A DNA stretch of 64,000 nt from an uncultured Bacteroidales bacterium (GCA_946409645.1 CAMJXE010000001.1:27710-91709), one strand, 5' to 3'; counted from the stretch's first letter, positions 33,083-58,800 are shown. The notes: generated by a model from the sequence alone, not told the origin. Numbers and translations: made by a program.

Positions 33083-36000
33083 TCACCGTTTCACAAACTT
33101 TTTTGTCACCGCACCCTTATCCGTGTTGATACGCATCAGATAAGTACCGGAAGAGAGCTTCGACACGTGGACCCGTTTCGGATCTTCAATCGCCTCTGAA
33201 CGCAAGACCAATCTGCCATAGATATCGTAAATTTCTATGAACGAGATATTTATATCGCTTTCTGCACGTACATCAAGGTGATGTGTTGCGGGATTGGGGA
33301 ATATTGATATCGCATGTTCAAGCAAATAGTGAGCAACACTCACACTATCAATAATCTGAGTGGTATCCACAATGGAAGTGTCTATTAGTGTGCAGAATGT
33401 GAGCGTAATCCAGTCGCTGAAGTCTTCCTCATCGCAACGGGTGCGAACGTACAATGTATATACGGTGCCGCTGTCAAGCTCCGTAAATGTATGTGACATA
33501 GTGTCTTGTAAAGTCAGGACAAGCGATTCGTCCAACGTATCCCCTTCCGCCAACAACGTTATATCCCATTCGTGATGAAAAGCCAATATATCCGTAATGC
33601 TAAACGACATTTCCGTATAGGAGACAGAGTCAATGGCAATTGCGGCAGGCGGATTGCATCCAAATGGAACTATGCAGATGTTGTCGAACGCTCCTGCCGG
33701 ATTGTTCCCCAAAGAACCGTCATTTCTCCAAAGAATATACAATCGCACAACACTGGTGGTGGCATTAAATGTGTCGCTATAGGTAGTCCATTGGTCTCGT
33801 TGATAAAGTATCGTGTCTATCTGCACAGCGCCATCAGGGATTACAACGTAATTGGATCCCACATTCGGAGTTGCAACAGGTCCAATGAAAACCTTCGCAT
33901 AATCATACACCGTATTATTATAAATTTCACCTATACCCCTGAAATCAAAAGTAATCTGATACGGATTTTGTTCCGGATCTATATGGAAGTCGCGGTATGC
34001 CCAAAGCGTGGAGGGGGAATTGAATGTATAAGCATTCGTCAATCCACCATCATTACTGACATAAAGGGAGTGTCCTTCGCTTTGTGTAGCTGCCGTATCA
34101 ACAACCCATTGGTTCACAGAGCCATAACTAACATATTGCCAACTATTGACTTCCACAGGATCCTCAAAATCACAATAATATGGAATATGGGCCAACTGGT
34201 GCTGCGTTTGGAATTCTCTCATCTGCCAAAGCCCTGATTGTCCGTCGGCATAATTAGCACGCACGCGGACTAAATAGTCCGTAACGGGCTGAAGATTAGT
34301 AATATTGCACATCGTATCATTAACTGTCACAACAGCCATGACGGAATCTGTCAACATCGCATACTCAACGGTATAGGAAGCAGGAGTGAGCGTGTCGGCC
34401 ATATTCCATGTAACAAGGGCGGAGATATCCGTTGGTACGACCTGCATCATCGGCGGTTGCATATCCTCTGTAGATAAGCACACGTTATCGATAGCGGCTG
34501 GTGGATTCGTCCCTCCAGAATTGTCATTACGCCACAGAAAATAGATCCTCTGAAAACCAGTATGCGTGGAATCAAAGGTGTATTGGTAATGTGTCCAACC
34601 ATCCTTCAAACACAATTTGGAAGCCAACTTCAAAGCACCTGAGGGAGTCGAGTTTCCAGACGGTAGAGTCGTCGGGCCGACAAATGCGTCCACATAGTCA
34701 TAATTATACTCACCCATTCCCTTGAAATCGAACGAGAAGTAATAGGTTGAATGTCCTGGGGTGACAAAAATATCCGTATAAGCCCAACAGTTCGCAGTTA
34801 CGGAAGGGTTATAGCTATTGGTCTGGCCATTGTCAGAGGAAACATAAAGAGTCCCGTTAGGCATACATTCGGCATGACGACCGACAAACCATCGCTGACT
34901 CGACACATTGGAACTCATTTGCCAAGAACTCACACTCTCAGGCGTATCAAAATCGCAAACATAGAGAATGTTACCATTGGTATAAAATGATGATTCCTCG
35001 CTCCATTGGCTATATTGTACGTCGCAATTCTGTTTTACTTTCCAATAATAGAAAACATTGCTGAGCAGATTTTGGACAGTCAAGAAAGTGTCGGAAACGG
35101 TCACGTATGTGTACGCCGTGTCGTTTTGCGGACGGTAGGCCACCGTATAGTTCGTACCCTGACCGCCCCTGCGCAAAGTCCAAGAGAGTGTGGCACTACT
35201 GTCCGATGCGGCAGACCACAGTTCAACAGGTTCCCGGCAAGGATTGGCAGCAATCTCGAAATTGTCGAATGCAGCGGGTGGTTGCGTAACCGAGTAAGTG
35301 TTGTTGGTCCACATCACGTAAAGCCTTTGTACGCCACTATGAGCAGCATCGATATAAAAATGATAATGTTGCCATGATTCCTGGTTGTACAAACTTGCGC
35401 CCAGCTGTTCCGAACCCTCTGGCGTGAAGGTTTCAAACGGAGTGGCAGGTGTGCCCAAGAAGACCTTGGCGTAGTGGCTGCTACTACCTTTGCCTTTGAA
35501 ATCGAAGGAAAGATCGTACTCGTCGTTGCCGGGAGGGAAATATATGTCGCGATATGCCCAAATCTGAGACACCGAACCGTTGGAATAGTGATTCGTAGCA
35601 CTGTCATCAGTGACATATAATGCAGAATCGCCAGACAGATGCACTCCATCCCCTATCATCCATTCATTAGGGCCACTGAGGCAAACGAACGACCAAGAGG
35701 TATTCTCGCTTGCATCTTCAAAGCCACATTCGTACGGAAGAGTAGCACACATCGGCTGAAGGGTGGTGAAGCGGGCGCCGTTACTCCATAAACTGTGGTC
35801 AGTGTCGGAGCAGTTTGCCCGAACCATCCAGTAATAGTAGCTGTCGGGCAGCAAGCCTGTAATTTGCAAAAAAGTATCAGCACTTGTAACTTCAATGAAG
35901 GCACTGTCGTTTAATAACTTGTACGCCACGGTATAGCTCATCGGCAGTGCATTGGCATTGCCCGGGTTCCAAGATAACGTGACAGAGGTGTCTGTTGTGG

Positions 36001-39000
36001 AATGCGCGACAAGATTCACCGGTATGGCGCAATCCGAAACCTGAACGGTGATGTTGTCTATTGCAGCACCCGGATTCATACCGTTATACGAGTCGCAACG
36101 CCACTGAAAATAGATTCGCTGCAATCCCGAGTGGCTTGAATCCACCTCGAAACTGTAGTGTGTCCATGACGGCACCATACAGAGGTCGCCACCAAGTTGT
36201 TCCGCTCCTTCGGGAGCGTTAAGTCCGGAAGGTGTTGCCGGAGGACCAAGATAGACCCGTGCAAAATCCGCGTCGGTTTGTCCCAAACCTCTGTAATCGA
36301 ATGAAATCTGGTATTTGTCAACATCTCCTCCCAAGAAAATGTCACGATAGGCCCATAGACGGGCAGTAGCGTAATAATTGTAGTTTCCGTCTCCAAACGC
36401 AGAACCCACATGCAAGGTGACATTGCCGTTGTCCATCGGTGCCGCGCCGATGGTCAAATAATTCCAATCACTGCCATGGTCATACGTCCAATGGTCAATC
36501 TCGTCTCCATCCTCGAAATCACAAAAATAAGGAAGTAGCGGTTGCGTATGGAAAGGGCATTCGGAGCTCCAGTCACCGGGATCATCGCCACATTGGGTGC
36601 GTACTTTCCAAAAATAGGGAATGTCGGGGATAAGGTTGGTAATCAACACTGAAGTGTCCTGCACATTAACCATCGTGTAAACTGTATCGCCTTGGGGTTT
36701 ATAAGCCAACGTATAAGCTTGGCTTCCGACGGGACTCCAAGTAAAACGGGCGGCATTGGGAGCTGTCATGGTGGTGACCAGCATGGTTGGAGGAGGACAA
36801 GTGGAGACACTCACCTTCAAATTATCCACCGCCCCAGCCTTATCCGATGCATCAGCACGTATTCTATCGAAGAACAAGTGCTGAAAGCCCGAAAAAGAGG
36901 AGTCTATGACGATATAGTGATGTTGCCACTGATTGGAAGATGGGACGGAGCCGACAAGCACTGCATTGGAAAGCGAATCCTCCAACGATTGCAGCTTTAT
37001 CTCAGCTTCTATACCCAAATAATCAAAGGAGATGAGATATTCGTCAGCACCAGGTACAAAGTAAACGTCACGATATACGCTTATGGGATCTTCGTTAGAA
37101 TACATCGAATTGCAAGTGTTCGTGACACCGTCGTCATGCGAAACATAGAGCGAATAGGATCCGCCAAAAGCGACTGCATCACCAATAATCCAGCCATCAT
37201 TGTTAAAAGAGACAGAGGCCTGATGCCAACCGCCCCAGTCGGCATCGTTTTCAAAATCGGTAAAATAAGGCGTAATCGCAGCCGTAAAGAACACCACTTC
37301 CTTGCTCCAGGCACTCAGCGTGCCATCTGCTGCCACAGCCCGCACTTTCCAGTGATAACGGGTGGCCGACATCAACGAAGCAGCCTGCCATACAGTGTCG
37401 GTCAACGAAACGATGGTATAAGCGGTATCTGCATCCTCTCGATAAGCCAGCTGATAGGAAGCAGGTGCTTGGCGGTTACCTGAGGTCCAGCTCAGCAAGG
37501 CGGCATTATGGGTGACATTTGAGGAAACCAAATCATACGGCCGTCCGAACGCGACTGCAGTGAACGTTATATCATCAATAGCACAGGAGCCCTTCGCTAA
37601 ATTATAGTTGTCTTTCGTCCACTCGAAAACGAGCCGTTGTACACCAACGTGCGTCCGATTTAACGCAATGCTGACATGATGCCACAAAGTGTCCGTAAAA
37701 CGAATGGATTCTACCAGACTACCGTTAGAAGGAACGGAAAAACCGGGCGATGCGGGAGATACTACATACACTGAAATATCTGTTTGGTTCGTTGTGTCAA
37801 AGGTTTTGAAATCGAACTCCAGCATATATTCGTCGTATGTCGGGTCGAAAAAGAAATCCCGATAGAGATAAGCCTCTGCATAGTTGGGATTGTTGGTCTG
37901 ATAGGTCGCTCCGTTATCTTTGGAAATATAACTGGAATACTGACCGTTATGTTGAACGGCGCTTCCAATGCACCATTTGTGCTGCGAGGCTTCGTAGTAG
38001 TTAGCCCATGCGGCGTTTTCCGACGATTCTTCAAAACCGCAGGTGTATGGCATCGTGGCGAGCGTTTGGAAAGTATTGAAAGTCTGTTCAGTGCTCCACC
38101 CGCTATTTTCCCCATCGGAGCAGTTGGTTCGCACCTTCCACGAATAAGTGGTCAGCGGTTGCAAACCGGTCAAAGTGACGGTTGTGTCTGAAGTCACTAT
38201 TTCCGTGTATGCGGAATCTGATGCGGATTTATAAGCGACCGTGTAGGACTCCGGGCTTCCGAGTTCACACGCCCGCCACGTGAGTTGTGCCGTAGTATCA
38301 GATGGACTATCCGACAGATGCAACGGATGCGCACAACCCGTACCTGTGATGGAAATGTCATCAATGGCAATGGCCGGATAATATCCTGAATTAATGTTGT
38401 GATTCTGCCAGAAAAAGTAGATGCGCCGCACACCGGCAAAGGTGCTGTCCAACGTGTATTCGTAATGTTTCCAAGATGGAGAATAGCCACTGCTCGTGTG
38501 GTGGATTTTATCCCCTATCTGCACCAAACTGTCCATTGGCATACTGTCGGAAGGGGAAATTGGCGTTCCAATATACACTATGGCGTATGCATTGTTCTCA
38601 TCCCCACGCACTTTGGCATCAAAAGAGAATTCATAACCAGCATATTGCGGGTCAAAATAGACATCGCGATAGGTCCAAAGTGCTGATTCGGATGTGTAAA
38701 CATAGCTGTTGTCGGAGCCGTTGGCCTTTGTGGTGACATACAGAGAAGTGTTGGCGCTGTGATACGTGTTGTGGCCTAAGTACCAACGGTTTTTGTTGTT
38801 TCCCGAAATGACCGGCACATTCCACGCCAAGTTTTCGACCGCATCCTCAAAATCGCAATAATAAGGAAGCGGATGCACCCACTGGAGTTCCGTCTTGAAC
38901 GTAGCTACACTGCTCCAATCCGTTGAAACAGAATCGTTATAGAGCGTTTTCACCCGCCAGTAGTAATCGGTATAAATAGACAAACCCGTGAGTGTCACTG

Positions 39001-40549
39001 AATTAGTGTCATAAACGGTAAATTCCGTATAGTTATAATCCCCAGCCGTCTTATAGCCCACGATGTAGCCTATCGGGGCATCTACACAATCGTGCTGCCA
39101 AGAAAGCGTGGCGGAGGAATCGGTGATATTCGTGGTAGTCAGCGTGTTAGGCGGCAGACAAGGAACTCCCGTGATGGAGATATCATCAATGGAAATGCCT
39201 GGATTCCCGTTATCGTATGAACTTTTGTACCAACGGAATGAAAGACGATAAACGCCAGGTGTATCGACACTAAACGTGTAGTTGTGATCCATCCAAACAG
39301 AGTCATACGGCAAGACGGAACCAGAACACAGTTGTTTGAGCGTAGTATTATTGCTCGGCCCGAAATACGGCGTCGTACGCCCATATCCCCGATGTTTGAA
39401 GGAAATCACATATTGGGGATATAGTGTATCTAAATAGAATTCCCTATATGACCATATTTGATTAAACGGGCTAACATTACTACTGCAAATATTCGTAACA
39501 CCATCATCGTATGTATTATACAAAGAATGATTTCCTGAATATGAAACGTATGATCCAATAAACCATTTGCCATAATACAAAGGATAATTGTTCGGCAAGT
39601 TCCATAAAGCATTTTCCACCGAGTCCTCGAAATCGCAGTAATACGGCACATTAGCATACGTTCGCAACGTGGTGAACGTTCTCTCCAAACTCCAGTCACT
39701 TGATGCTGAATCACCACACAAAGCTTTCACTTTCCAATAATAAGTCGTGTTTGGAATCAAATTCGACAACGTGCAGAATGTATCCGAGACCATTACCTCT
39801 GTATAGGATGTGTCCGCTGACGTGCGATAGGCCACCTGATACTGATTCGCCATGCCTAAAACGCCTGGCACCCATGACAAATTTGCCGTGGAGGTTGTGA
39901 TACCGAAAGAAGCTAACATCTCCGGAAATGAACAGTCGTTATCCTGATACGTAAAAGTCAACTTGGGCAGAATATTCCCTTCGTATGGGACATTACTGTT
40001 ATTACCGACCACATTAATGGATGATATTAACAGGGGCATTTGACTTGACGATTGTATTTGCCCATAGAAATGTTCACTTCCGTAACTTCCTCCCGCCGGC
40101 TTATAAACCTCAACCAACAGGTTTCCGCCCGTATATAAGAAAGCCGTGTCCAGCGGAATACGCAAACACCCCTCCTCGAAAAAGGCGGACATCTGCCCTG
40201 ACCACACTTCTACTGTCGGGGAACCCGAAAAACCGCCCAACAGATTGTTGTCATTCGTAACACCCAATCTAACCGTCTGAATCCCATTCCATTGCAATGT
40301 CGGCATAGTTACAAAATACCATGTCAGCGTAGTAATATAATGTCCCTGCAATTCGGTAAGCATGGAAGCCGGATAGATCGACTGCGAATGTTGTGATTGC
40401 GACCAATGATACACCGACAGCGGGTAATACACCGACTCCGAAGTGCCATCGGCCACTGTTATCTGCTGCGCTTCAGCATTGATACCGCACAACATTCCTG
40501 ATATAATCCAAATCAAAAAGAATTTCCTTTTCATATTATCATATTTCAT
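33083..40549 (-). CDS. 2488-aa T9SS cargo: N-terminal domain, ~8 [FN3 + ~180-aa MAM/choice-of-anchor-J-like] modules, T9SS C-terminal sorting domain
   Basis: Signal peptide. Nine FN3-like units (..LSW..Y.V.Y..T.Y.WKV...C....WS....F.T) alternate with PYYCDFE..W..G....SLYVS.D.G.TN......WAYRD..F.F.G.G...VY.G....W.HY.....G.QR.YF.W..D....NP.AIDN units. The tail FPNPATHHLDV..IEIYDIYGRLV..GTYLMRI matches TIGR04183. Confidence 0.85.
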   Translation of the reverse strand: MKYDNMKRKFFLIWIISGMLCGINAEAQQITVADGTSESVYYPLSVYHWSQSQHSQSIYPASMLTELQGHYITTLTWYFVTMPTLQWNGIQTVRLGVTNDNNLLGGFSGSPTVEVWSGQMSAFFEEGCLRIPLDTAFLYTGGNLLVEVYKPAGGSYGSEHFYGQIQSSSQMPLLISSINVVGNNSNVPYEGNILPKLTFTYQDNDCSFPEMLASFGITTSTANLSWVPGVLGMANQYQVAYRTSADTSYTEVMVSDTFCTLSNLIPNTTYYWKVKALCGDSASSDWSLERTFTTLRTYANVPYYCDFEDSVENALWNLPNNYPLYYGKWFIGSYVSYSGNHSLYNTYDDGVTNICSSNVSPFNQIWSYREFYLDTLYPQYVISFKHRGYGRTTPYFGPSNNTTLKQLCSGSVLPYDSVWMDHNYTFSVDTPGVYRLSFRWYKSSYDNGNPGISIDDISITGVPCLPPNTLTTTNITDSSATLSWQHDCVDAPIGYIVGYKTAGDYNYTEFTVYDTNSVTLTGLSIYTDYYWRVKTLYNDSVSTDWSSVATFKTELQWVHPLPYYCDFEDAVENLAWNVPVISGNNKNRWYLGHNTYHSANTSLYVTTKANGSDNSYVYTSESALWTYRDVYFDPQYAGYEFSFDAKVRGDENNAYAIVYIGTPISPSDSMPMDSLVQIGDKIHHTSSGYSPSWKHYEYTLDSTFAGVRRIYFFWQNHNINSGYYPAIAIDDISITGTGCAHPLHLSDSPSDTTAQLTWRACELGSPESYTVAYKSASDSAYTEIVTSDTTVTLTGLQPLTTYSWKVRTNCSDGENSGWSTEQTFNTFQTLATMPYTCGFEESSENAAWANYYEASQHKWCIGSAVQHNGQYSSYISKDNGATYQTNNPNYAEAYLYRDFFFDPTYDEYMLEFDFKTFDTTNQTDISVYVVSPASPGFSVPSNGSLVESIRFTDTLWHHVSIALNRTHVGVQRLVFEWTKDNYNLAKGSCAIDDITFTAVAFGRPYDLVSSNVTHNAALLSWTSGNRQAPASYQLAYREDADTAYTIVSLTDTVWQAASLMSATRYHWKVRAVAADGTLSAWSKEVVFFTAAITPYFTDFENDADWGGWHQASVSFNNDGWIIGDAVAFGGSYSLYVSHDDGVTNTCNSMYSNEDPISVYRDVYFVPGADEYLISFDYLGIEAEIKLQSLEDSLSNAVLVGSVPSSNQWQHHYIVIDSSFSGFQHLFFDRIRADASDKAGAVDNLKVSVSTCPPPTMLVTTMTAPNAARFTWSPVGSQAYTLAYKPQGDTVYTMVNVQDTSVLITNLIPDIPYFWKVRTQCGDDPGDWSSECPFHTQPLLPYFCDFEDGDEIDHWTYDHGSDWNYLTIGAAPMDNGNVTLHVGSAFGDGNYNYYATARLWAYRDIFLGGDVDKYQISFDYRGLGQTDADFARVYLGPPATPSGLNAPEGAEQLGGDLCMVPSWTHYSFEVDSSHSGLQRIYFQWRCDSYNGMNPGAAIDNITVQVSDCAIPVNLVAHSTTDTSVTLSWNPGNANALPMSYTVAYKLLNDSAFIEVTSADTFLQITGLLPDSYYYWMVRANCSDTDHSLWSNGARFTTLQPMCATLPYECGFEDASENTSWSFVCLSGPNEWMIGDGVHLSGDSALYVTDDSATNHYSNGSVSQIWAYRDIYFPPGNDEYDLSFDFKGKGSSSHYAKVFLGTPATPFETFTPEGSEQLGASLYNQESWQHYHFYIDAAHSGVQRLYVMWTNNTYSVTQPPAAFDNFEIAANPCREPVELWSAASDSSATLSWTLRRGGQGTNYTVAYRPQNDTAYTYVTVSDTFLTVQNLLSNVFYYWKVKQNCDVQYSQWSEESSFYTNGNILYVCDFDTPESVSSWQMSSNVSSQRWFVGRHAECMPNGTLYVSSDNGQTNSYNPSVTANCWAYTDIFVTPGHSTYYFSFDFKGMGEYNYDYVDAFVGPTTLPSGNSTPSGALKLASKLCLKDGWTHYQYTFDSTHTGFQRIYFLWRNDNSGGTNPPAAIDNVCLSTEDMQPPMMQVVPTDISALVTWNMADTLTPASYTVEYAMLTDSVMAVVTVNDTMCNITNLQPVTDYLVRVRANYADGQSGLWQMREFQTQHQLAHIPYYCDFEDPVEVNSWQYVSYGSVNQWVVDTAATQSEGHSLYVSNDGGLTNAYTFNSPSTLWAYRDFHIDPEQNPYQITFDFRGIGEIYNNTVYDYAKVFIGPVATPNVGSNYVVIPDGAVQIDTILYQRDQWTTYSDTFNATTSVVRLYILWRNDGSLGNNPAGAFDNICIVPFGCNPPAAIAIDSVSYTEMSFSITDILAFHHEWDITLLAEGDTLDESLVLTLQDTMSHTFTELDSGTVYTLYVRTRCDEEDFSDWITLTFCTLIDTSIVDTTQIIDSVSVAHYLLEHAISIFPNPATHHLDVRAESDINISFIEIYDIYGRLVLRSEAIEDPKRVHVSKLSSGTYLMRINTDKGAVTKKFVKR

Positions 40550-40571: not shown

Positions 40572-43500
40572 TTAATAATTCCTCACGCAACGCACCGAAT
40601 ATGCCCACTGATAATGATTGGAACTTTGTGATAGGACACGATAGTTGTATGAAATCTTGAACACATGGCATGCACTGTAAACACCGGGATTTAAAGAGCG
40701 GCTCCAAAAGAATGCAGACTGGCCAACCTGAAAATCAACATCATAGTGTCCGCCCGAAGGGAAAGCAGAGAACCCCGTAAGATTGTTGTTACTAGGAGTG
40801 GCTCCCGGCACGCAATTCTCTGTAGAGATATTCCAACCCGAAACACCCGCCAATGCCTTGGCGACGCTTGTGGTATCATCTCCACAACCATAATAATGAC
40901 CCGTGTAATTCCTCAGAACTAACCACTCGGCATCATCAGGAACATGCCATCCATCAGGACAAATGCCTTGAGCATCCACATTATTGACAGGGGAATTGTT
41001 TGTAAGGGCATTCCAATTGTATAAATAACCATATTTGGGAAACAGACTATCAGCAATAGAATGATGATAATAATAGGGGATACTCTCCGAAGAACCTCCT
41101 AATGCGATAGGCGTTCCATCGGGAAAATGGGTGGTGTAGAGATTTGATTTCATCCAGCATTGGCTGCCCACTTGCACGGTATTATAGACGTGACCCTCAT
41201 AATCGGTCAGCGTGGGGGTTCCTATGCAGGGCTGCCCATCCTCCGCCACCGTCAGCAGCAGATAGTCGTCGCTGAAAAGGAGCGTGCCGTTGGAAACGCA
41301 ATATCCACGCAGATAATAGGTGGAGGCCCGTTCAAGACTATCCACAAGAATGTCGAAAACGTTGTCCGTGCTGGTTGTTGGGAAATTCCGATTCGAAAGA
41401 TCTGGCTGCGGCAGCGTGTCCAAGCAAAGTCCCCGGTTGGAGATGGCAGCGGAACTGTCGCATACGATAGTCACCCGCATGGTGGCGTAGTTGTGATCAA
41501 GATGGACTAAGGAGAGATGAACAGAAGTGGGAATGGTGTCCGGCGCGAAACTCAGGATGTTGCCATAGACCGTACCCATCGCGTTGGTAGCATACGGGCG
41601 GACATAGCAGAGTGTGTCATGGATGCCGCCAATAATCTGCTGGAAAGCACCCACTGTGCCGTTCCACTCGACATGGTTGTCCGTCAAAGTTGGCGTTGGG
41701 TTTGCCGACCAGCATAATCCCACCACTGCGGTTGCGTCGCCACCATCCGTCAGCAGTGCTCCTTGACAGGTGGCATACGAGGAACCGATGTTGGTAATGG
41801 AGTCCAACGCCACAGCCGGAAGTCCGATTTCTGTGGTAAAATCGACCACATCCCCATAGCCTGTACCTACGGCGTTGGTAGCGTAAGCCCTTGCATAATA
41901 GTGAGAGGCTGAGGTAAGGTTGGTCAAAACACAGCTAAAACTATCTGAGGCTGTGGATGTTGTCACGTAGCTGTCCGTTAATGTAGGCACGTCAGTCAGT
42001 CCCCAACAAATGCCGCGCTCCAAAATGGGCACACCGCCATCATTCACAATCAAGCCACCCACGATTGCGGAAGTATCCGTAATCGATGAGACTTGCACGG
42101 TCATGAGGGATGGAGCAACGTTTGCATCCGTGGTGAAGGTGACCGTTTCGCCATAGACGGTGGCGTAGGCGTTAGTGGCGTAAGCGCGACAGTAGTAGGG
42201 TGTCCCTGCGGTCAGTCCCGTCAGCGTTGCGGTGAAAGTACCCATTCCTGATCCAACAGCCATATTGGAGGCCGCAAGAGTCGGGTTCGGCAGCGTGTCC
42301 CAGCAGAAACCGCGTTCCGTCACAGTCGCCAGTCCTTCAGAAAGGACCTCGCCGCTACATACGACCGAATTGCGCGTTACGGAAGTAACAGCGCCAGAGG
42401 CTACATACGGACTGTCAATCGGACAGGCAATTGGGACATCGATGGCGATTTCCGCCTCTTCTACGTAACCATTATCAGCATTGAGAGCATCCAAGACACG
42501 GATTTGCCAAAGACCGTTCAGCGGACAACCGACCAAATAGGAGAACGATTCGTCCGGTTTATACATGTTAGACAACGTGGTCACATCCGTAGCCGCGACA
42601 TAATTATTCGTACTGCCGTTAAAGCTGGGATTATACGTGGTAAAATGGTTACACGATTCCCAAACCCGCGAACCTCCGCAGGCATACGTCTGTCCGTGAG
42701 TAGTGTCCATTGACCAGCAGTAATTCCAACATTCGCCCATTGGATTCACAGTCGGATCGCAACTAGGATTGCTGTTGTGTATGTCATAACATCCAAAGTG
42801 AGCATATTGTGGTTCGTTGTTGCCCCCTGGCCATCCCCAATACAACAATGGGATAAGACTTGCACAACCGTTATATTGGCTTGATTGCCCCGACCAACTT
42901 TTTGTCATTATGGTAGCGGATTGTTCATTGGGACAAACCAACTGAATCCAAAGGTCTCCGATTCGTTCGTGTTCCATTTTCAAGCGAACGTAAGTCAACT
43001 GTTCTATACTTTGCAACACCGCATCCGGATCATAACCATAGATATGAATATTCATGGTACCGAAGCAATCTCCGTCACACTCCACGCCATCTGGAATAAG
43101 CACCGTGTTGGTATCAACAAAATGCCGCACTCCGGAAAGCTCCCCCAAGGTGGCGAATGTCAGAACGACTGTCTCATCCGGAATGGTGGTGATTTCCATG
43201 GTTTCACTCGGCAGAAATAGTTCATTCACCTGACGGAAACCTGTAACACGAAGCAGGTCACCGTCCTCATAACCGCCACTCCTGCTGGATTTTAAGGTAT
43301 ATGACAATGCATACTCCCCATTATAGGCTATATGGCTGCTGCCGCCAGATCCGTTGTTCACCATCTTGATGGAAACTTTCTCGCGAGTCGTCCTTACCAT
43401 CAGTAAATACTGCTGCGGCGTGTTCAGCCAAACGCGGAAGGTGTGCGCACCCGCCGAAAGCCGCTGCGACTTACCCGTCACTTTCCGTCCAGCCATGTCG

Positions 43501-43838
43501 AACACTTCAATGCTCACCTTGTCCTCGTTGGGCATCATGAGCGTGAAATCCGTCACCCCGTCGAAAGGGTTGGGCGTATTCTGCAACAGGGTCAGCTTCT
43601 CCACCCGTTCATAGTTCTCCAGCCCCACCCCCGACAAAACGAGAATGGTGTCCGGATAAAACAAGGTATCCGACCATTCTTGCGTAATATCCTCAATGAC
43701 AGCATGATGTAACTGCACGTAACTACCATGACTGTCTTGTCCCGTAAGGCGAATGCTTGGTTGAGCCAAAGTGGGAGCTTGGAGCAGCGTCAACAGCACT
43801 CCCACTGTTGTGATGATGTTTAAGACTTGCTTGATCAT
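40572..43838 (-). CDS. FISUMP-domain surface protein, paralog 1 (1088 aa)
   Basis: Signal peptide, N-proximal T9SS-CTD/FlgD-Ig-like segment, P-domain-like RLKMEHERIGDLWIQLVCPNEQSATI, and four ~90-aa G.CW...P.PT..D...YY.RAYATN..G..YG units. The C-terminal FISUMP domain reads GSQCWMKSNL..YGYLYNWNA..CPDGWHVPDDAEW..SVRCVRN. Confidence 0.8.
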   Translation of the reverse strand: MIKQVLNIITTVGVLLTLLQAPTLAQPSIRLTGQDSHGSYVQLHHAVIEDITQEWSDTLFYPDTILVLSGVGLENYERVEKLTLLQNTPNPFDGVTDFTLMMPNEDKVSIEVFDMAGRKVTGKSQRLSAGAHTFRVWLNTPQQYLLMVRTTREKVSIKMVNNGSGGSSHIAYNGEYALSYTLKSSRSGGYEDGDLLRVTGFRQVNELFLPSETMEITTIPDETVVLTFATLGELSGVRHFVDTNTVLIPDGVECDGDCFGTMNIHIYGYDPDAVLQSIEQLTYVRLKMEHERIGDLWIQLVCPNEQSATIMTKSWSGQSSQYNGCASLIPLLYWGWPGGNNEPQYAHFGCYDIHNSNPSCDPTVNPMGECWNYCWSMDTTHGQTYACGGSRVWESCNHFTTYNPSFNGSTNNYVAATDVTTLSNMYKPDESFSYLVGCPLNGLWQIRVLDALNADNGYVEEAEIAIDVPIACPIDSPYVASGAVTSVTRNSVVCSGEVLSEGLATVTERGFCWDTLPNPTLAASNMAVGSGMGTFTATLTGLTAGTPYYCRAYATNAYATVYGETVTFTTDANVAPSLMTVQVSSITDTSAIVGGLIVNDGGVPILERGICWGLTDVPTLTDSYVTTSTASDSFSCVLTNLTSASHYYARAYATNAVGTGYGDVVDFTTEIGLPAVALDSITNIGSSYATCQGALLTDGGDATAVVGLCWSANPTPTLTDNHVEWNGTVGAFQQIIGGIHDTLCYVRPYATNAMGTVYGNILSFAPDTIPTSVHLSLVHLDHNYATMRVTIVCDSSAAISNRGLCLDTLPQPDLSNRNFPTTSTDNVFDILVDSLERASTYYLRGYCVSNGTLLFSDDYLLLTVAEDGQPCIGTPTLTDYEGHVYNTVQVGSQCWMKSNLYTTHFPDGTPIALGGSSESIPYYYHHSIADSLFPKYGYLYNWNALTNNSPVNNVDAQGICPDGWHVPDDAEWLVLRNYTGHYYGCGDDTTSVAKALAGVSGWNISTENCVPGATPSNNNLTGFSAFPSGGHYDVDFQVGQSAFFWSRSLNPGVYSACHVFKISYNYRVLSQSSNHYQWAYSVRCVRNY

Positions 43839-43887: not shown

Positions 43888-44050
43888 TAAATATTCCGTC
43901 ATTTCCAAAATATGTTCCGTCTCAACCAAAAATATGACGAGTGGGGTATTATTTGAGGCTTAACGGATAAAAACAGCGTTGAAAATCAAGATGTTGTCGA
44001 AAACCGCCAGGTTATGGATGTGAGACGGAATAAAGCGGGGTTTTGAGAGG
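43888..44050 (-). promoter_or_regulatory. conserved upstream element, copy 1 (~165 bp)
   Basis: About 85-90 % identical by eye to 50809..50972. TTCCGTC occurs at 43894 and 43915 (21-bp phase), with an inverted GACGGAA at 44024. Confidence 0.6.
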
Positions 44051-44083
44051 GAAATAAGAAAAAAGACGGCATTTTCGGGTTCG

Positions 44084-45298
44084 TCACACTGACGGTAACC
44101 CTTCCTTGAGAAACTTTCTTAAGGACAAATGAGTGATTCCATTTTCGTCTCTTGTATTCAACAATGGTGTTGCACTGATGACGAATTTCGGGTGATTGTC
44201 GCGAATCTTTTCCAAAGGGCCGAATTCCCGCTTGCGGGTGGACTCTTCGGCTATAATATAGCTCGCCTGAATGTAAACGGTCTTGCCGGGCTTGGTGCAG
44301 ACGAAATCCACCTCCCCTGCATTCAGCACGCCCACCTTCACCTCGTAGCCGAGAAAGCGCAGATGCTTGTAAATGGCATTCTCGATTACTTTCTCAATAT
44401 AAGAATCCATGCCACCCTCCGCTTTGAGATTGCGAAGCCCCAAGTCGTCCCAATAGATCTTTTCGTTGGACTCGAAAATCTTCTTCCCGTGTATGTCGTA
44501 ACGGGGCACGATGTCTAACAGGTAAGCTTCGGCATAGAAGCCCCGATAGAGCAGGACAAGGTTGGCCGACACATTCTCATGTTGCGACTTCATGTATTTG
44601 GCAATGCTGTTGGCCGAGGTGAGTTTGCCGGTGGTATCAGCATAGAAGGCGATGAGGTTGTTTAAGAAAGGGATGTTGCGGATGTCGTGCCGCTCGATGA
44701 TATCCTTGAGCATGATCGTATTGAAGACACTGGTGAGATAGGCCAAAACCTGCTCGTCACTGTCAAGCCCCACTTTCCTGAGACCAGGAAGACCGCCGTA
44801 GGTCAGATAAATCATGAGGCTTTCGTCGCTGTCGGGAAGGTTGTGGAATTCCAGAAACTCGGAATAGGTGAGCGGATGGATGCGCACCTCCACATGTCGT
44901 CCGGAAATCAAGGTGGCCAACTCGCCGGAAAGCATCTTGGAATTGCTGCCGGTAATGATGACATCCGTGTTATCCTCTGAGTACCAGTTGCAAATGCTCT
45001 CTTCAAAGTGCTCAATTTCCTGCACCTCGTCAATGAGGATAAAGTTGTGCTTTCCCGGGATGAAGCGTGCTTCAATCCAGTTATCCAAGTCGTCTTTGGT
45101 CTTGATGTCTTTAAACGCCTTCTTTTCCTTGTCTATAAAAATGATATTGACATCCGTCTCATCCATGTGACGCTGCACAAAGTCTTTGAGAACATAGCTT
45201 TTGCCAACGCGGCGCGAGCCAACCAAGGCGATGATGTTGCCTTTGCCTATCCACGAATCCACAATATCCGCATAGTGCCTCCTTGTAAGTACTTCCAT
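44084..45298 (-). CDS. AAA ATPase with DUF4143-type C-terminal domain (COG1373-like)
   Basis: Walker A GSRRVGKS, Walker B FILIDEVQ, and C-terminal GEVDFVCTKPGKTVYIQASY. Confidence 0.8.
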   Translation of the reverse strand: MEVLTRRHYADIVDSWIGKGNIIALVGSRRVGKSYVLKDFVQRHMDETDVNIIFIDKEKKAFKDIKTKDDLDNWIEARFIPGKHNFILIDEVQEIEHFEESICNWYSEDNTDVIITGSNSKMLSGELATLISGRHVEVRIHPLTYSEFLEFHNLPDSDESLMIYLTYGGLPGLRKVGLDSDEQVLAYLTSVFNTIMLKDIIERHDIRNIPFLNNLIAFYADTTGKLTSANSIAKYMKSQHENVSANLVLLYRGFYAEAYLLDIVPRYDIHGKKIFESNEKIYWDDLGLRNLKAEGGMDSYIEKVIENAIYKHLRFLGYEVKVGVLNAGEVDFVCTKPGKTVYIQASYIIAEESTRKREFGPLEKIRDNHPKFVISATPLLNTRDENGITHLSLRKFLKEGLPSV

Positions 45299-45322
45299 TT
45301 TCCTTTGTATTATAACTGGCGG

Positions 45323-47407: not shown

Positions 47408-50400
47408 TTAATTCTTGATACAGCGGGCAGAGTGGCACTCCGAGGCATCACCAAGATGGTTGTAAAGGCCGGACCCGTTGTTGGAAATCGAGAAATAGTA
47501 ATAGCCATCAAGAAAAGTGAAATTGCCGACGTGGATGTATTTTGCCGTAGTGGACCAGAATGTGGCCTCGGTGTGGAAATCACTGTTTTCCTCCGTCACC
47601 CCTTGGTCTCCAAGGTAATAGGCGACTTCGCCGGCGGGCATGGCGGTGAATCCGGTCTCGTTGTTGGTCAGCTGCTCGTAAGCCGGTGCACAAGCGCCAA
47701 CGCTGCTGTAGTAACCAAGTGTCCATCCCGAAGTGGAGGCCAATGCTTTTGCGACATTGTAGGACGAACCGCCACAACGGTACAATTCCTGACTCCCAAC
47801 GTAACTATTGAGCGTGTCCCATTCATCCTTGCTCGGCAAATGCCAGCCTGCGGGACAAAATTTGCTCTGACGCGCCACATACAACGAATACAAATAACCG
47901 TATTCGGTCACATTCGCACTGTCGCCAGCAGGATAGTAGCAGCCGTTGTTTAGCACTATGTCTGTACTGTCAGTGTATCGCCTGGTACGCATGTTCTCTT
48001 TCATCCAACACTGCGAACCCAGTTGGACTGTGTGATAGACATTTCCGTCGATATCCGTGACAGTGGTGTCGCCCGGGCATGGCGTACCGTAAACCGTTCG
48101 CGTGACAAACTTTATTTCATTGCCGTAAGAAGTGCCATAACTATTTGTTGCGTAAGCCTTTACGTGGTAAATAGTGTCCAAAGAGAGGTTTTCCATCAGC
48201 ACATCAAAATGGTCGAAAATGGCAGGCGAAGAGGCATGGCGGTCAGCGACTGTGGGGTTTCCCGAAGTGTTCCAACAGAGTCCTTCTTCGCTTAAAGGAA
48301 GCCCACTGTCGATAACGATGGCACCACCACTCTGGGCGGTAGTGTCGTTTATGACAACAACAGGGGATGTTGTCACCACAGGAAGCGGTATTGTATTTAC
48401 AACCAACTCGTTTGAATAGGTAAAACCGGCGATATTCTCGGCAAATCCCCGAATGTAGTAAGTGACTCCAGGGGTCAGTCCTGTAACGGTGGCGGTGTGG
48501 TTATGGCTGTAAGAGTTTGTGCCTGCAGGGTGCGAAAAGGTGATGCTGGTGTCGTTGATGGTCGGGTTGGGCGATGTTCCCCAACAAATGCCATCAGAGA
48601 GGACTGCAATCGGGGTAGAGACGTGCAGGTCCACTGTCACGGAGACATTGGTGGAATCGGACAGGGTGAGATTGGCCGTCGGCGGGTAATGGGTCTTGAA
48701 GGATTTGTTGGCACCGTAGGAGATGCCCAGCGCATTGCGGGCAAAGGCACGAACACAATAGTTAGTGTTGTTCGACAGACCTGTGATTTCGTAGGAAAAG
48801 GTGTCCGCAGTGGTTGTCAGATACTCCACGTTGTCAGTAATGGAGGGCGCTTGATTGTTGGCCCAGCAGATGCCGCGCTCCAGTATGGGCAGTCCTCCGT
48901 CGCTCACAAGGATACCCGTAGCCATTGCGGAAACGCCCGTAACATTGGAGATGTTGCAGGTGGTGACGGTCGGCGTAACATTGGGATTGGTGGTAAACGT
49001 CCTTGTCGTACCATATCCGACACCCAGCGCATTGACGGCGTAGGCACGGTAATAGTAAGTGGTTCCGGCAGAGAGATTGTCAATCGGTACCGAAAAATGG
49101 CCTTCACCCTGACCGTCAAATGCGTGATGCCCCATAACGGTCGGTTCGGGGAGCGTGTCCCAGCAGATGCCACGCTCCGTCACAGCCAGCAGGCCATCAT
49201 ACGTGACATTCCCGTCACAAACAGCACTATGGAAACTGATGGCGGAGGCAGAACCCGTAGTCACTACAGAAAGACTCGCAAGATGCCATGCGGAGTCGGG
49301 GGCCAACGCAAGTTCCGCCTCCTCCACATAACCGTTGTCCAGACTCCATCCATCAATAATGCGAATCTGCCACAATCCATTCAGCGGACAGCCTATCAGG
49401 CTGGAGAACGACTCGTCAGGGTGGAAGAGGTTCGTCATGAGCTGCATGTCGGTGCTGTCAACAATGAAATCGCTGCCAGAGACAAAGAGGTTGCACGTGT
49501 CGTAAACGTACGCACTGCCACAAGTATAGACATAGCCACTGGTCGTATCACAAGACCAACAGTAGTTCCAACACGTTCCCATAGGATTATTGGCTGGGTC
49601 GCATTTGTCATTGCCGTCAGGCTTGTAGAACTGACCTAATTTGGCCTTGGCTTTACCCTCCTGCTGCCATCCCCGGTCTTCGGTCGGAATCTGATTGGTA
49701 CAATTGCTGGTCGAATTGTAGCTATACAACCTCAAGAGGGTGGCCGACTGTCCATTGGGGCAAGCGAGTGAGATCCACAAGTCCCCGAGATAGGAGTGCT
49801 CCATCTTCATACGCAAATAACGGAGGTCCTCAACACTCTGAACGGTTCTGTTGGACGGATAACCGCTCACTTCGAAGTTCATGGTGCCCAAACAGGTGCC
49901 GTCGCAGGGGGTACCGTCGGGAATAAACAATGTGGTGGTGTCATAGAAATGACCGTCCAGCTCCACAAATCCCCACAAATGGAACTCCAGTTCGAAATCC
50001 TCGTCCGAGTTTTGCACCTGTTCAATCACTGCGCTGGAATACAACATGCTGTCATTCAGGAAATAGCCGACATAGCGCATTACGTCGCCAGGCTCAAAAG
50101 GATGATGGCTGTTCATCCTTGACCGCAGCTCGTAAGTCAGCGGTTCGGTGTTGCGATACTCGATGTGGTTACGACCGCCGTTGCTGTTGTTCAACATCTT
50201 GATGGAGGCAGCATCATGGCTTGTCTTCACCGTCAGTAGATACGACTGGGGGACATTCAGCCACACGCGGAAAGTGTGGGTTCCGGCATACAACCGCAGC
50301 TCCTTTCCCGTCACCTGGCGCCCCGACATGTCAAACACCTCAATGCAGACCGAAGACTCGTAAGGCAGTGTCATCGTGAAGTCTGTCACCCCACTGAACG

Positions 50401-50659
50401 GATTCGGCACATTCTGCGAGACTGAAAACTTGGATACAGATTCATAGTCTGACAGTCCAACCCCTGACGTGATGAGGATGGTGTCCGGATAATAGAGCGT
50501 ATCCGTCCAATCTCGCGTAATATTCTCTACCACAACATGATGCAACTGCACATAACTGTCAAGATTGTCCTTACCCGTAAAAGTCAGGGTGACCTGTGCC
50601 AACACAACGCTCTTGCAAACAGCGCAGAATAATATGGCGAAAAGAATGATTTTTTTCAT
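47408..50659 (-). CDS. FISUMP-domain surface protein, paralog 2 (~1083 aa)
   Basis: Same architecture as 40572..43838. FISUMP tail GSQCWMKENM..YGYLYSL..CPAGWHLPSKDEW..SARCIKN. The start could be 50659 or 50668. Confidence 0.8.
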   Translation of the reverse strand: MKKIILFAILFCAVCKSVVLAQVTLTFTGKDNLDSYVQLHHVVVENITRDWTDTLYYPDTILITSGVGLSDYESVSKFSVSQNVPNPFSGVTDFTMTLPYESSVCIEVFDMSGRQVTGKELRLYAGTHTFRVWLNVPQSYLLTVKTSHDAASIKMLNNSNGGRNHIEYRNTEPLTYELRSRMNSHHPFEPGDVMRYVGYFLNDSMLYSSAVIEQVQNSDEDFELEFHLWGFVELDGHFYDTTTLFIPDGTPCDGTCLGTMNFEVSGYPSNRTVQSVEDLRYLRMKMEHSYLGDLWISLACPNGQSATLLRLYSYNSTSNCTNQIPTEDRGWQQEGKAKAKLGQFYKPDGNDKCDPANNPMGTCWNYCWSCDTTSGYVYTCGSAYVYDTCNLFVSGSDFIVDSTDMQLMTNLFHPDESFSSLIGCPLNGLWQIRIIDGWSLDNGYVEEAELALAPDSAWHLASLSVVTTGSASAISFHSAVCDGNVTYDGLLAVTERGICWDTLPEPTVMGHHAFDGQGEGHFSVPIDNLSAGTTYYYRAYAVNALGVGYGTTRTFTTNPNVTPTVTTCNISNVTGVSAMATGILVSDGGLPILERGICWANNQAPSITDNVEYLTTTADTFSYEITGLSNNTNYCVRAFARNALGISYGANKSFKTHYPPTANLTLSDSTNVSVTVDLHVSTPIAVLSDGICWGTSPNPTINDTSITFSHPAGTNSYSHNHTATVTGLTPGVTYYIRGFAENIAGFTYSNELVVNTIPLPVVTTSPVVVINDTTAQSGGAIVIDSGLPLSEEGLCWNTSGNPTVADRHASSPAIFDHFDVLMENLSLDTIYHVKAYATNSYGTSYGNEIKFVTRTVYGTPCPGDTTVTDIDGNVYHTVQLGSQCWMKENMRTRRYTDSTDIVLNNGCYYPAGDSANVTEYGYLYSLYVARQSKFCPAGWHLPSKDEWDTLNSYVGSQELYRCGGSSYNVAKALASTSGWTLGYYSSVGACAPAYEQLTNNETGFTAMPAGEVAYYLGDQGVTEENSDFHTEATFWSTTAKYIHVGNFTFLDGYYYFSISNNGSGLYNHLGDASECHSARCIKN

Positions 50660-50784
50660 GCTACCCATTTTATACTATTTTTGATAAACCGTTCATTTAT
50701 ATAAGTATGACGCAAAAAGTGCAAAGGTTACACCTTGCCGAATTTTTTGTTTGCGGCAAGAATGCCGCAGCTTCTTTTCCGCTG

Positions 50785-55853: not shown

Positions 55854-58800
55854 CTATTGAGACAACATTAACTGTAACTGAATACCAGTTTCAAAATTCA
55901 TATTGTCGTATTGGTTCATTACCTTTGGCTTGTTGATGGCCTGGTCATAATAAAACTTCAGACCCACCATACGGCTAAACTGGTAATCGGCAGAAATATT
56001 GATAGTCATATTCAAGGAGCCAGAAGTCACCTGTTCATTGTCCTCAGTTATACGACGAAGCATCGTCTGGTTGTCTTTCAAGCCGAAACCAGCTGAAACA
56101 TTCAAGTCGCTGACAAACTGACGTTTAACGCCCGCAAACACCAATCCGATTTTAATATCCTTAAAGCGATAACCTGCGGAAACAGTAACTTCCTTGCTGG
56201 TCGTTTCCGTAATCTGTGTGTTGGCGAAGCTGAGGGATATATTTCGGGATTGCTTGTACTCCACTTTCATCAACATGCTGTTTTTCAATGTCATATCAAA
56301 ACCAATCAGCGGGCCAAATTGTTCAACCATCGACATTTGGCTAAGCTCATTGGTGGCGATGAAATCGCCTAATGTATTGTATGCGTTGGGGTACCCATTC
56401 GCATCTGCGGAGAAGGCAATATTGGTGGAATAATTGCCGACATTATAGCTACAAGTGTAATTGTGAATCAAAGAGAAGCTTTGGAATATTTTGCTAAATG
56501 CTTTGATTTTTGTCAAACCGTTGTAATTCAATCGCCAGTTGGGCAATGGAATTTTCAGGAACGGGGAAAAGATATCGCCTTTTTGTGCGTCCTTGCTCAA
56601 GTAAGTGGTCATGAATGCACCCATCAACACATCTTGAGAAATGGCACTGTAACCGACTGGATAACCTGTCTCAGGATCGACATCACCTGTATAATTGGGG
56701 TTGTTTTCAGCGTAGCGTTCCGCTAATTGAGCACGCACTTCGCGGAACTGCTGGAATAGTTCATCATGATTCTTGAAAAATGTTCCCAAGCCACAATAGG
56801 TCATGCTGAAGGAACCGGAGCGTTGGGGGGTGTAATGAGACACATTCCCCATTTCGTCAACATGGAAATATTCGGAGAAGTTCTCAGTGAAGTTGCGGTT
56901 AGCTGAAACGTCGATTCTGAAATCGCGGAACGGTTCCACTGTGGCGCGGAAATTTATCACTTGGTTCTTAGTACGTTGGTAAGCCGTATTCAACAAGGAA
57001 TCTGTAGTTAACCAACCATTACGAGCACCAATCGCTTGAATGTCGGGCTGGCCGCCAAACATAAATAGGAATCCTGGACCATTGGCCTCCTTACCATGCC
57101 CAAGCAAAGAAGCTGAATACATGTAGCCTGGCAGCACGGTTCCGCGACCTTGCGAATAGGTGGCAGAAATGTTGCGCACTGACATGAGCAGACGTACCGT
57201 TCCGTCTAAAATCATCCTACCCACTTGAGGCTTTTCTCGCAACGAATCGTTCTTGTCGTGCTTCTTACCTTTTTTACCTTTCTGTACTTCATTTTCCACA
57301 TCATCCTTAGCGTTTTTCCCTTTATCAGCCTTGTCTTTGTTGTTTAGGCTAATACCTTGGTTGACTTTCTTAAGATAAGGAACTGAGTTGTATAGAGTTA
57401 CGAAATTCAAAGAGGCGTTGCCCTGAATATTCTGTGAGTTTTGAATGGTGTTACCCAAATATGAGATTGAGAGTGCCGATGCCGTGTACATGTACATGGA
57501 AGAGTAACGAACATTCGCAGTCACAAATTTGAATATAGGTATCTTATTGATAGGCACTTGATAAGTGGCGTTGAAATTTTGACGATAGTCGGTAGTACGA
57601 CCGCCTTTTCCCAAACAGCGCCAAACGGAATCTTTTTTCGCTCGCGTGTCAATTCGCCCGTCGGGTTCATCGATTCGTGCAGAAGCGTCCGCTCTGAACT
57701 CCAGTTTCAAACTCTGGAAAATATCCCAGTTGATGGCATAGTTGCGGGTCCAATCGAAAGATTTCACATAGTTCGTATCAATAATGATATTTCCTTTGCT
57801 CTTGGGACGATATTTGAACTCTTGCAAATCACGATGCAACGTAGTGCGAATGGTGATATTCTTAGGCAAGGGTGTGATATTGAAGTCACGAATTAATTGC
57901 AGCCACTTGTTCTTAGTCCATTTTGCACTGGCGAAAGGCTTGTAATTCTTGGGATTAGTGCTGAAAGTATATCCAATTTCACCATTATGGATATATTCGT
58001 TATTCATCTCCAAGTCTTCGTCGCGTTGCACCAACTGGGAGTAGGAGTACGACAAGTCAAAGTTCTCAATATCCCAGAGATGCATTTTGGTATTTCCCTT
58101 GGAGAAGTCACGTTCCTTGCGGACATTCATCAGGTTAACATTCTGGCGTTGTATGACCTTATTGGTCAGGAATCGCAGTGAGTCACGTTGCGAAGCAGGA
58201 AGATCCGCCAACTCATCTTTCATTTTCACGTCTGGGTTAAGCGGGTTGTATTCCGGTTGTACAACCGCCAAAGAATAGTCGTAGTGTACTGGAATTTTTA
58301 TATTCCAATGTTCTGGGAATAAGAGCTTTCCACCGTCAATATTAGTAGCCACATCGAAATTGACGTTCGTTTCATGAGAACGTTCTGTGATAGATTGTTC
58401 CAAGGAGCCGAATCCTGGGGTGGAGTACATACCCGAAATGGTTAGGTCACCCACATCGGCCAAGGTAGTACGTGCTCGCAGTAATGCGGCCACGCCTTGT
58501 CGGTCATCAAAGCCACATAGTCGCAGCTCATTGATCCACATTTCAACCGATTTAGGTTTCATATCATCATAATAGCCACTTACTTCAGCGTCACCCGCTC
58601 GTTTCTTGGGATTTCGGACACCAATCATAATGGTAGTCACTTCGCCCAAATTCGGGTTACCCACGACCGTGAAGCGAGGATCAGAGTTGGAGAGTCGAAT
58701 TCGCGAATAAGGAACCAGAATATTGGGGTGATAACCATTTCTAATCGCTCTGTTACGTTCCATTTTCAGGGCTACCAAAGAATCCAAGGTGATATAAACC

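Follow-up and report, generated by a model that had tools for sequence, protein, structure and literature searches.

What is a secretion signal of the C-terminal kind doing at the N-terminus of proteins that end in a different domain? Type IX secretion system (T9SS) cargo is now defined, and predicted genome-wide, by its C-terminal domain (CTD), and matches to this domain elsewhere in a protein are discarded as invalid. The question is raised by a 64,000-nucleotide stretch of DNA from an uncultured rumen Bacteroidales bacterium (GCA_946409645.1, CAMJXE010000001.1:27710-91709; the whole stretch is referred to here as the window), in which two paralogous genes each encode a segment resembling a T9SS type-A CTD close to the N-terminus of a protein with a FISUMP domain at its C-terminus. 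An earlier reading, made by a model from the sequence alone (the sequence-only reading), had pointed out that such a placement conflicts with the rule of a C-terminal signal, and the conflict is genuine, as cargo-prediction pipelines explicitly require C-terminal CTD matches (PMC11969387). Sequence and profile comparisons show the segment to be a genuine evolutionary copy of the type-A sorting domain, built into a lineage-specific N-terminal 'leader' module, and we tentatively propose that this module serves T9SS-linked export and anchoring.

Both paralogs are minus-strand genes, and the peptides to which the sequence-only reading had drawn attention are present on that strand exactly as quoted, whereas plus-strand translation of 43356-43595 and 50189-50428 yields nonsense with stop codons. 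On the minus strand these two intervals encode residues 82-161 of paralog 1 and residues 81-160 of paralog 2. The proteins have a common layout, i.e., a signal peptide ending in ..LA/Q (the slash marks cleavage), a stretch of ~200 aa with the CTD-like segment inside it, a Cys-rich module, four immunoglobulin (Ig)/Fn3-like repeats and the C-terminal FISUMP domain, which was correctly recognised from the sequence and scores far above the curated cutoffs in both paralogs (PF09603 99.6 and 90.1 bits, cutoff 33.9; TIGR02145 95.3 and 92.6 bits, cutoff 41.65). Identity between the paralogs is 61% over the segment that follows the signal peptide (N-seg), 63% over the CTD-like domain and 29-50% over the other regions, making the CTD-like domain the best-conserved region of the pair.

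Full-length scans place the domain without passing the curated thresholds. The hidden Markov model (HMM) TIGR04183 aligns with residues 88-160 of paralog 1 over model positions 2-70 of 72 (22.2 bits, E 9.9e-5) and gives 15.7 bits for paralog 2, so that both miss its cutoff of 23, and both also miss the PF18962 cutoff of 27 (16.8 and 13.3 bits). Scanned alone, the 142-aa N-terminal module of paralog 1 reaches 25.9 bits with TIGR04183, which is above the cutoff. The same model matches 31 of 32 homologous modules (best E 1.5e-10) and PF18962 matches 26 of the 32. Some relatives exceed the Pfam cutoff as full proteins (PF18962; e.g., 33.2 bits in P0053 and 27.7 bits in P0083). FlgD_ig (PF13860) finds nothing in either paralog and matches two of the 32 modules at E<=0.01. 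The sequence-only reading, which had called both segments textbook CTD or FlgD-Ig domains and proposed an HMM scan, was therefore right about the CTD homology and about where a scan would find it, but not about the FlgD-Ig assignment or the textbook quality of the full-length scores.

Comparison of profiles leaves little doubt about the relationship. When a profile of the CTD-like segment was aligned with 20 genuine C-terminal CTDs, hhalign returned a probability of 99.8% and an E-value of 5e-28 over 80 aligned columns, a resemblance that is far beyond chance. The alignment places SIKMV of the module over the ..KKMV.. motif E of real CTDs, with Lys158 of paralog 1 as the K of KKM, and the aligned Lys is kept in 157 of 159 family members. 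A near-invariant Lys near the C-terminal end of the CTD, in motif E, is functionally important (PMC10994853, PMC10202324). Paralog 1 further carries the motifs QNtPNPF, DmaGR and PQqYLL ahead of the invariant Lys158 within SIKMV. A profile of 222 aa of the module gave marginal matches among PDB sequences to the CTDs of a GH167 enzyme and RgpB. On these alignments the type-A sorting domain has true homologues in paralog 1 (residues 82-163) and paralog 2 (residues 81-162), as the sequence-only reading had claimed, and the homology is solid at the level of module and family, not from the full-length scans.

The domain is not a free-standing insert: as the alignments have it, it forms the core of a ~200-aa N-terminal module that is conserved and begins right after the signal peptide. 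In a homologue search with residues 1-468, N-seg (~50-55 aa) and the CTD-like domain always occurred together, directly after the signal peptide, and the pair heads FISUMP proteins with or without the P-domain module as well as enzymes of glycoside hydrolase family 53 (GH53). A profile of 32 modules was then searched against 1.84 billion representative proteins (clusters at 50% identity), giving at least 422 clusters at E<=1e-30 and 1832 at E<=1e-10. In all 150 best of the at least 422 clusters the module lies at about residues 22-170, while the proteins that bear it range from 163 to 6124 aa in length. The few seemingly internal copies, e.g., in P0066, have a signal peptide of their own just upstream and are thus explained by mis-called starts. 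Conservation over 159 members reaches approximately residue 228, after which similarity collapses, and the conserved part includes a Gly-rich stretch (N.G.GG.N) after the last strand of the sandwich and the almost invariant motif G-D..M.Y.GY. The order of the leader module is accordingly signal peptide, N-seg, disordered linker, CTD-like sandwich and a third beta part. In paralog 1 the linker occupies residues 73-81, a stretch that varies in both length and sequence in alignment A1, and the third part (residues 164-235) has an invariant D and G in alignment A3 and five strands by AlphaFold2.

The start of the module also speaks to the export route. Its median position is residue 24 (175 members), with a Gln 1-3 residues before the first strand in an A/Q cleavage context, and just four of the 175 have a Cys no more than 5 aa from that start, i.e., there is no lipobox; because of both features we regard the family as substrates of signal peptidase I (SPI) and not as lipoproteins. 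Neither a second CTD-like domain nor a C-terminal CTD was found in 180 family members with a home-made profile, which is itself weak on the real CTD of a protein encoded beside paralog 1 (12.3 bits), and as a backup ten members scanned with Pfam showed no C-terminal Por_Secre_tail. N-seg contains D-T-[ITV] in 153 of 159 members (Asp63-Thr64-Ile65 in paralog 1, window ~43644-43652, with an equivalent in paralog 2). The general O-glycosylation motif of Bacteroidota is D(S/T)X (PMC11969387), and the N-seg motif fits this sequon, making a conserved glycan on the module likely.

AlphaFold2 models the CTD-like segment as a seven-strand beta-sandwich with a pLDDT of ~90. The Foldseek matches are Ig-like sandwiches, including the RemA CTD in its translocon complex (8gl6_D; TM-score 0.64 on the target) and PorU (6za2). 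A model of 142 aa consists of a hairpin in N-seg, a disordered linker (pLDDT <50) and the sandwich; once the third part is added, N-seg strands appear at 2-9 and 39-41 and the pLDDT of N-seg rises, which suggests that in the models N-seg and the third part share one sheet around the inserted sandwich. A minimal version of the module is found in a GH53 enzyme (P0059; an open reading frame (ORF) around 6001-6249 of locus L059), where the signal peptide leads into one strand (SITLTGQD), then the CTD-like sandwich and then a strand with IEY.G. This variant has lost the remainder of N-seg together with the GD..M.Y.GY part and has kept the sandwich, and because the flanking parts can be lost in this way we take the sandwich to be the indispensable core of the module.

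What follows the module is variable. A FISUMP tail (..SVRC[LVI][RK]D) ends 101 of the 150 best module clusters of the at least 422, and most of the representatives that do not end in FISUMP are short or truncated, judged by their lengths and C-terminal sequences. Other cargo includes GH53 (galactanase), Cleaved_Adhesin together with GH85_C, FGE-sulfatase, Y_phosphatase3, Metallophos and arrays of Fn3/Ig domains up to 6124 aa; the GH53 galactanase, Cleaved_Adhesin and Fn3/Ig arrays are typical of the cell surface. In P0024 the order is permuted, with the N-terminal module, FISUMP, an Ig repeat and the P-domain-like module last, so that the N-terminal module alone keeps its place. In a subgroup (P0083, P0088, P0093, P0099 and P0140) the C-terminus is conserved but is not FISUMP: behind Fn3 and GH85_C-like domains it reads ..(Y/W)xx(V/I)(T/W/H)F, with Phe as the last residue. 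The Cys-rich P-domain-like module (residues 236-468 of paralog 1; P0025-P0050) behaves as a mobile cargo module. It is also found without the N-terminal module, in proteins of ~600 aa with a type-B T9SS-like domain (precomputed PF13585 matches), which was C-terminal in five of five scanned proteins (TIGR04131 22-32 bits, below the cutoff of 35). FISUMP, or Fib_succ_major, is a family with a C-type-lectin fold and is among the listed target proteins of diversity-generating retroelements (DGRs). A role of the paralogs as DGR variable proteins was considered and rejected, with no reverse transcriptase domain in the neighbouring ORFs and no repeat of the FISUMP 3' end within window 40-54 kb.

A scan of genomes confirmed the position of the domain in its genetic context, using the narrow alignment A2, by which distant family members are under-sampled. 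All 58 full-length genomic matches come from metagenome-assembled genomes (MAGs) of uncultured Bacteroidales, Bacteroidia or Lentimicrobiaceae, often with several copies of the module per MAG, and their sample sources are mostly rumen or herbivore gut (reindeer, sheep, yak, goat, buffalo, deer, horse), with one Hadza human. The domain is followed by 300-2000 aa in these loci (L001-L058), and it ends at residue 163 of 1088 in paralog 1, far from a C-terminal position. As a control, the peptide patterns from the scan also match ordinary CTDs in Saprospiraceae, Latescibacterota and other groups, and in these control loci (L060-L080) a stop codon follows 2-8 aa after the domain. The source organism itself has a T9SS, since SprA is encoded in the window and a gene for canonical CTD cargo adjoins paralog 1.

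We therefore have a family with a strict N-terminal position of the domain, a single copy, the highest conservation between paralogs, a retained motif-E Lys, surface-type cargo and neither lipobox nor C-terminal CTD, and because of this combination the reading we favour, with a confidence that stops somewhat short of even, is that the module is a T9SS-linked N-terminal export and anchor determinant which leaves the lectin-like C-terminus free. Export by Sec and cleavage by SPI would make the module the extreme N-terminus of the mature protein. The CTD-like sandwich would then be bound by the same shape-based, plastic PorV/SprA pocket as C-terminal CTDs, and the protein would cross the outer membrane by way of the T9SS; recognition of CTDs in this pocket is known to depend on fold and shape (PMC10994853). 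With no passenger upstream of the domain, the usual transfer of the protein by PorU to anionic lipopolysaccharide (A-LPS) would be impossible. The domain would instead stay on the protein and hold its N-terminus at a PorV/PorQ-type barrel, like the CTDs of PorU and PorZ, which are never cleaved and tether these proteins to PorV and PorQ (PMC10202324), while the variable cargo and the lectin-like FISUMP domain would project outward with a free C-terminus. T9SS recognition, retention of the domain and surface topology are steps that we infer. The wider proposition is plausible though rather less than evenly likely, namely that the T9SS accepts cargo with an N-terminal type-A domain, which would either stay in place as a tether or serve PorU in ligating the short N-seg to LPS, and that such cargo would constitute a reversed-topology class, abundant in uncultured rumen Bacteroidales, that evolved for a free FISUMP C-terminus.

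Several observations weigh against T9SS-linked export and anchoring. Among the MAGs that bear the family, the presence of a T9SS is established for this window alone, and no PorV-, PorQ- or PorP-like gene is conserved beside the family genes in the 58 loci. Ig-like sandwiches are common structural modules. BLASTP gave no alignment between the CTD-like segment of paralog 1 and the real CTD of the neighbouring protein, and profile methods were needed to see the relationship. The mean column identity of the module is 54%, compared with 41% for real CTDs (A6) and ~20-29% to the neighbouring CTD, so it is far more conserved than real CTDs usually are and could, to go by the alignments, have a different binding partner. 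There is no experiment or structure that shows T9SS transport with a CTD that is not C-terminal. Mutagenesis has placed the essential residues within the last 13-22 residues of the protein (PMC10202324), and here ~900 aa of chain continue after the corresponding residues.

Some of these points also support the most serious competitor, which we regard as credible though again rather less than evenly likely: that a former CTD was duplicated and, out of contact with the T9SS, now has a purely structural role at the N-terminus as a stalk or spacer, or else acts in folding or oligomerisation, the proteins remaining in the periplasm or in vesicles or leaving by another route. According to Lauber et al., what the conserved type-A motifs specify is the fold and not contacts with the translocon (PMC10994853), and because of this the conservation of the motifs alone proves nothing. 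Such co-option would also agree with the generic Ig-like sandwiches returned by Foldseek, with the two flanking conserved beta segments, which seem packed together as in an ordinary multi-domain stalk, and with the higher conservation, the missing BLASTP similarity and the missing experiment just described. It accounts less well for the fact that spacer Ig domains usually vary in position and copy number, while here one copy stands always at the mature N-terminus in more than 400 clusters with unrelated cargo, or for the domain being the most conserved part of the paralogs and the part retained in the minimal GH53 variant, and it would leave giant adhesin-like, Cleaved_Adhesin and GH53 cargo that have neither lipobox nor CTD without an export signal. 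The structural spacer, one of three explanations offered by the sequence-only reading, is thus possible and yet fits poorly with the strict position, single copy and conservation of the domain.

The remaining explanations are less probable. We consider it unlikely that the anchor is split, with export by the T9SS via the CTD-like domain, after which PorU would cut the disordered linker and ligate the ~50-aa N-seg to A-LPS, and N-seg, paired by its strands to the third part, would hold the whole protein on LPS with a free C-terminus. Like the cleavage linkers of CTDs (PMC11969387), the linker here is both disordered and variable, N-seg is as conserved as the CTD-like domain and has the near-invariant sequon, its strands at 2-9 and 39-41 are modelled only when the third part is included, and most of N-seg is lost together with the GD..M.Y.GY part in the minimal variant; even so, contacts of N-seg with the third part are merely suggested by the models, the scheme as a whole is conjecture, and a non-covalent anchor of this kind has no precedent. 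That a protease cuts after ..SIKMVNNG, so that a ~135-aa fragment with a true C-terminal CTD is secreted and the remainder left behind, seems very improbable, since the secreted product would be just the 50-aa N-seg and the large cargo, be it adhesin, enzyme or lectin, would be left stranded. The conserved Gly-rich stretch after the last strand could accommodate a cut, but no cleavage motif is evident, and the sequence beyond it (I.Y.G, GD..M.Y.GY) belongs to the conserved module. A role of the 278-aa candidate outer-membrane beta-barrel protein encoded after paralog 2 in export or anchoring is still harder to credit and is largely refuted: its weak matches to OMP_b-brl_2 and OMP_b-brl (24.7 and 20.8 bits) lie below the Pfam cutoffs, NCBIfam gives no match, no homologue stands beside the family genes in the 58 loci, and paralog 1 has no such neighbour. 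Exposure of the domain by processing and the route through this barrel gene, the other two explanations of the sequence-only reading, thus found no support. Finally, coincidence or an artefact of annotation (e.g., a false positive from low complexity, ORF fusion or misassembly) would agree with full-length scores just below the curated cutoffs, but is refuted by the hhalign result, the 31 of 32 modules that match TIGR04183 and the recurrence of the in-frame architecture in hundreds of independent assemblies, leaving it a negligible prospect.

The outcome matters in either case. Several hundred clusters have the domain fixed at the mature N-terminus and no export signal besides it. If the domain is functional, the T9SS substrate rule would need revision, the secretome predicted for abundant fibre-degrading rumen Bacteroidales would grow, and nature would provide a design for surface display with a free C-terminus. 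If it is not, we see here, in clear form, how a sorting domain has been recycled for a structural purpose, and the automated name 'T9SS type A sorting domain-containing protein' can mislead.

Table 1. Features of the two paralogs and their surroundings (positions are those of the window; aa, amino acids)
Feature	Position	Strand	Basis or remarks
Paralog 1 gene	40572-43838	-	1088 aa
Paralog 1 predicted signal peptide, residues 1-25	43764..43838	-	Read from sequence; predicted SPI cleavage ..TLA/Q, mature N-terminus Gln26
Paralog 1 N-seg, residues 26-72; beta strands, W55 and P62-D63-T64 invariant	43623..43763	-	Alignments A1, A3; AlphaFold2 strands
Paralog 1 linker, residues 73-81; variable, disordered, between N-seg and CTD-like domain	43596..43622	-	pLDDT <50 in both models; varies in A1
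Paralog 1 T9SS type-A-CTD-like beta-sandwich, residues 82-163	43350..43595	-	HMM, hhalign, AlphaFold2
Paralog 1 third module part, residues 164-235; Gly-rich linker, I.Y.G strand, G-D..M.Y.GY motif	43134..43349	-	Conservation profile, 159 members
Paralog 1 Cys-rich module resembling proprotein-convertase P-domain, residues 236-468; cargo	42435..43133	-	PF01483, 23.6 bits (weak)
Paralog 1 four Ig/Fn3-like repeats, residues 469-870	41229..42434	-	NF049889 N-terminal region, four stretches; weak fn3 matches
Paralog 1 C-terminal FISUMP, residues 871-1088, plus stop codon	40572..41228	-	PF09603 99.6 bits; TIGR02145 95.3 bits
Paralog 2 gene	47408-50668	-	1086 aa
Paralog 2 predicted signal peptide ..VLA/Q, residues 1-24	50597..50668	-	Read from sequence
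Paralog 2 N-seg, residues 25-71	50456..50596	-	61% identity to paralog 1
Paralog 2 T9SS type-A-CTD-like beta-sandwich, residues 81-162	50183..50428	-	TIGR04183 15.7 bits, PF18962 13.3 bits
Rest of paralog 2: third module part, Cys-rich P-domain-like module, Ig/Fn3 repeats, C-terminal FISUMP	47408..50182	-	HMM matches, paralog comparison
Conserved non-coding region upstream of paralog 1	43889..44051	-	84-95% identity to twin upstream of paralog 2 (50810-50973)
Fn3/MAM/Ig giant with canonical C-terminal type-A CTD	33083..40549	-	2488 aa; PF18962 49.4 bits, residues 2416-2486; TIGR04183 53.4 bits
Candidate outer-membrane beta-barrel, after paralog 2	46602-47438	-	278 aa; OMP_b-brl_2 24.7 bits, OMP_b-brl 20.8 bits
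SprA/Sov, T9SS outer-membrane translocon	55854..63191	-	PF14349 SprA_N, 585.9 bits

The protein beside paralog 1 is a giant with a canonical C-terminal type-A CTD (Table 1), and its gene starts 22 nt downstream of paralog 1. The gene pair is syntenic in three further loci (L001, L005 and L006), from close relatives, and the two genes are probably co-transcribed and may be an operon or functional partners. Neighbourhood clustering of the 58 loci revealed no conserved partner gene, and the barrel gene, the ORF at 46016-46657 and the AAA_14 gene were rejected as partners of the family, being unlinked in these loci. The sole recurrent gene cluster is a family of signal-peptide proteins of ~705 aa, found near family genes in eight of the 58 loci (L014 9034-11151 and seven others); none recurs in more than eight, antisense ORFs within family genes excluded.

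The regions upstream of the two paralogs are twins of ~165-190 nt that are 84-95% identical, far above the coding DNA, and share an exact 19-mer present at these two sites alone. They contain inverted 10-mers (TTCCGTCTCA / TGAGACGGAA) ~97 nt apart, followed by a -7 box of the Bacteroidota type (TATCTTTG / TATTTTTG), and in L021 and L024 the motif TGAGACGGAAYA is likewise present upstream of family genes, at a distance of 260-370 nt. An Rfam search of the conserved region gave no match, and from its sequence the region looks like a shared regulatory site. A divergent gene (50965-52101, plus strand) whose start abuts the upstream region of paralog 2 encodes a 378-aa protein with LytTR and winged helix-turn-helix DNA-binding domains, a candidate regulator of the family genes. 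Elsewhere in the window, a 41-nt inverted repeat (45320-45415; 78% complementary, 14-nt loop) lies just upstream of an AAA_14/DUF4143 ATPase gene (44084-45325, minus strand). Window 5097-16835 encodes an SNF2 helicase with DUF3670, two DUF1016/YhcG PDDEXK nucleases, a C5 cytosine methylase and a DUF2357 plus PDDEXK_7 protein, and its GC content swings from 0.37 to 0.58; it is a probable defence or restriction island.

Compared with what has been described, the module itself appears to be new. Neither N-seg nor the third part is represented by a Pfam or NCBIfam model, the searched literature contains no T9SS CTD at an N-terminal or internal position and nothing on the term FISUMP, and the few papers that name Fib_succ_major deal with DGRs or Fibrobacter. 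The sequence-only reading had allowed that the architecture might prove common and already described; common it is, with at least 422 clusters, but a description of the module is found neither in Pfam or NCBIfam nor in public protein names or the searched literature. The FISUMP/Fib_succ_major domain (TIGR02145, PF09603) ends both paralogs and about two thirds of the family, whereas the definition of that family is silent on an N-terminal module, and public records of module proteins are named by FISUMP, TIGR02145 or the P-domain alone.

The closest known system is the T9SS type-A CTD, with which the module shares homologous sequence, a length of ~80 aa, a seven-strand Ig-like sandwich, the motifs PNPF, D..G[RK], G/Q.Y.L and the motif-E Lys in KM[VI], and occurrence in Sec-exported proteins of a T9SS-bearing Bacteroidota genome. 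It differs in standing at the mature N-terminus, whereas in the control loci just 2-8 aa separate a real CTD from the stop codon, in having two extra conserved flanking segments and higher conservation, and in that both full-length window proteins score below the curated cutoffs. PorU, which is among the Foldseek and NCBIfam partial matches of the module, and PorZ likewise have CTD-fold domains that are not removed and tether the proteins permanently to the barrels PorV and PorQ (PMC10202324), an analogy by which the module too might tether its proteins, but their CTDs are C-terminal, and no cognate barrel gene is linked to the module family. As far as its published description allows a comparison, the TANFOR leader of polymorphic toxins (PMC7073777) is similar in being a domain of ~140-150 aa with a fixed N-terminal position in Bacteroidota proteins that are very large, variable and composed of many domains; on residues 1-235 of paralog 1, CTD-type models are the only Pfam/NCBIfam models that match. 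What is new in the present module is that a known sorting domain occupies a fixed position at the opposite end of the protein, together with new accessory elements.

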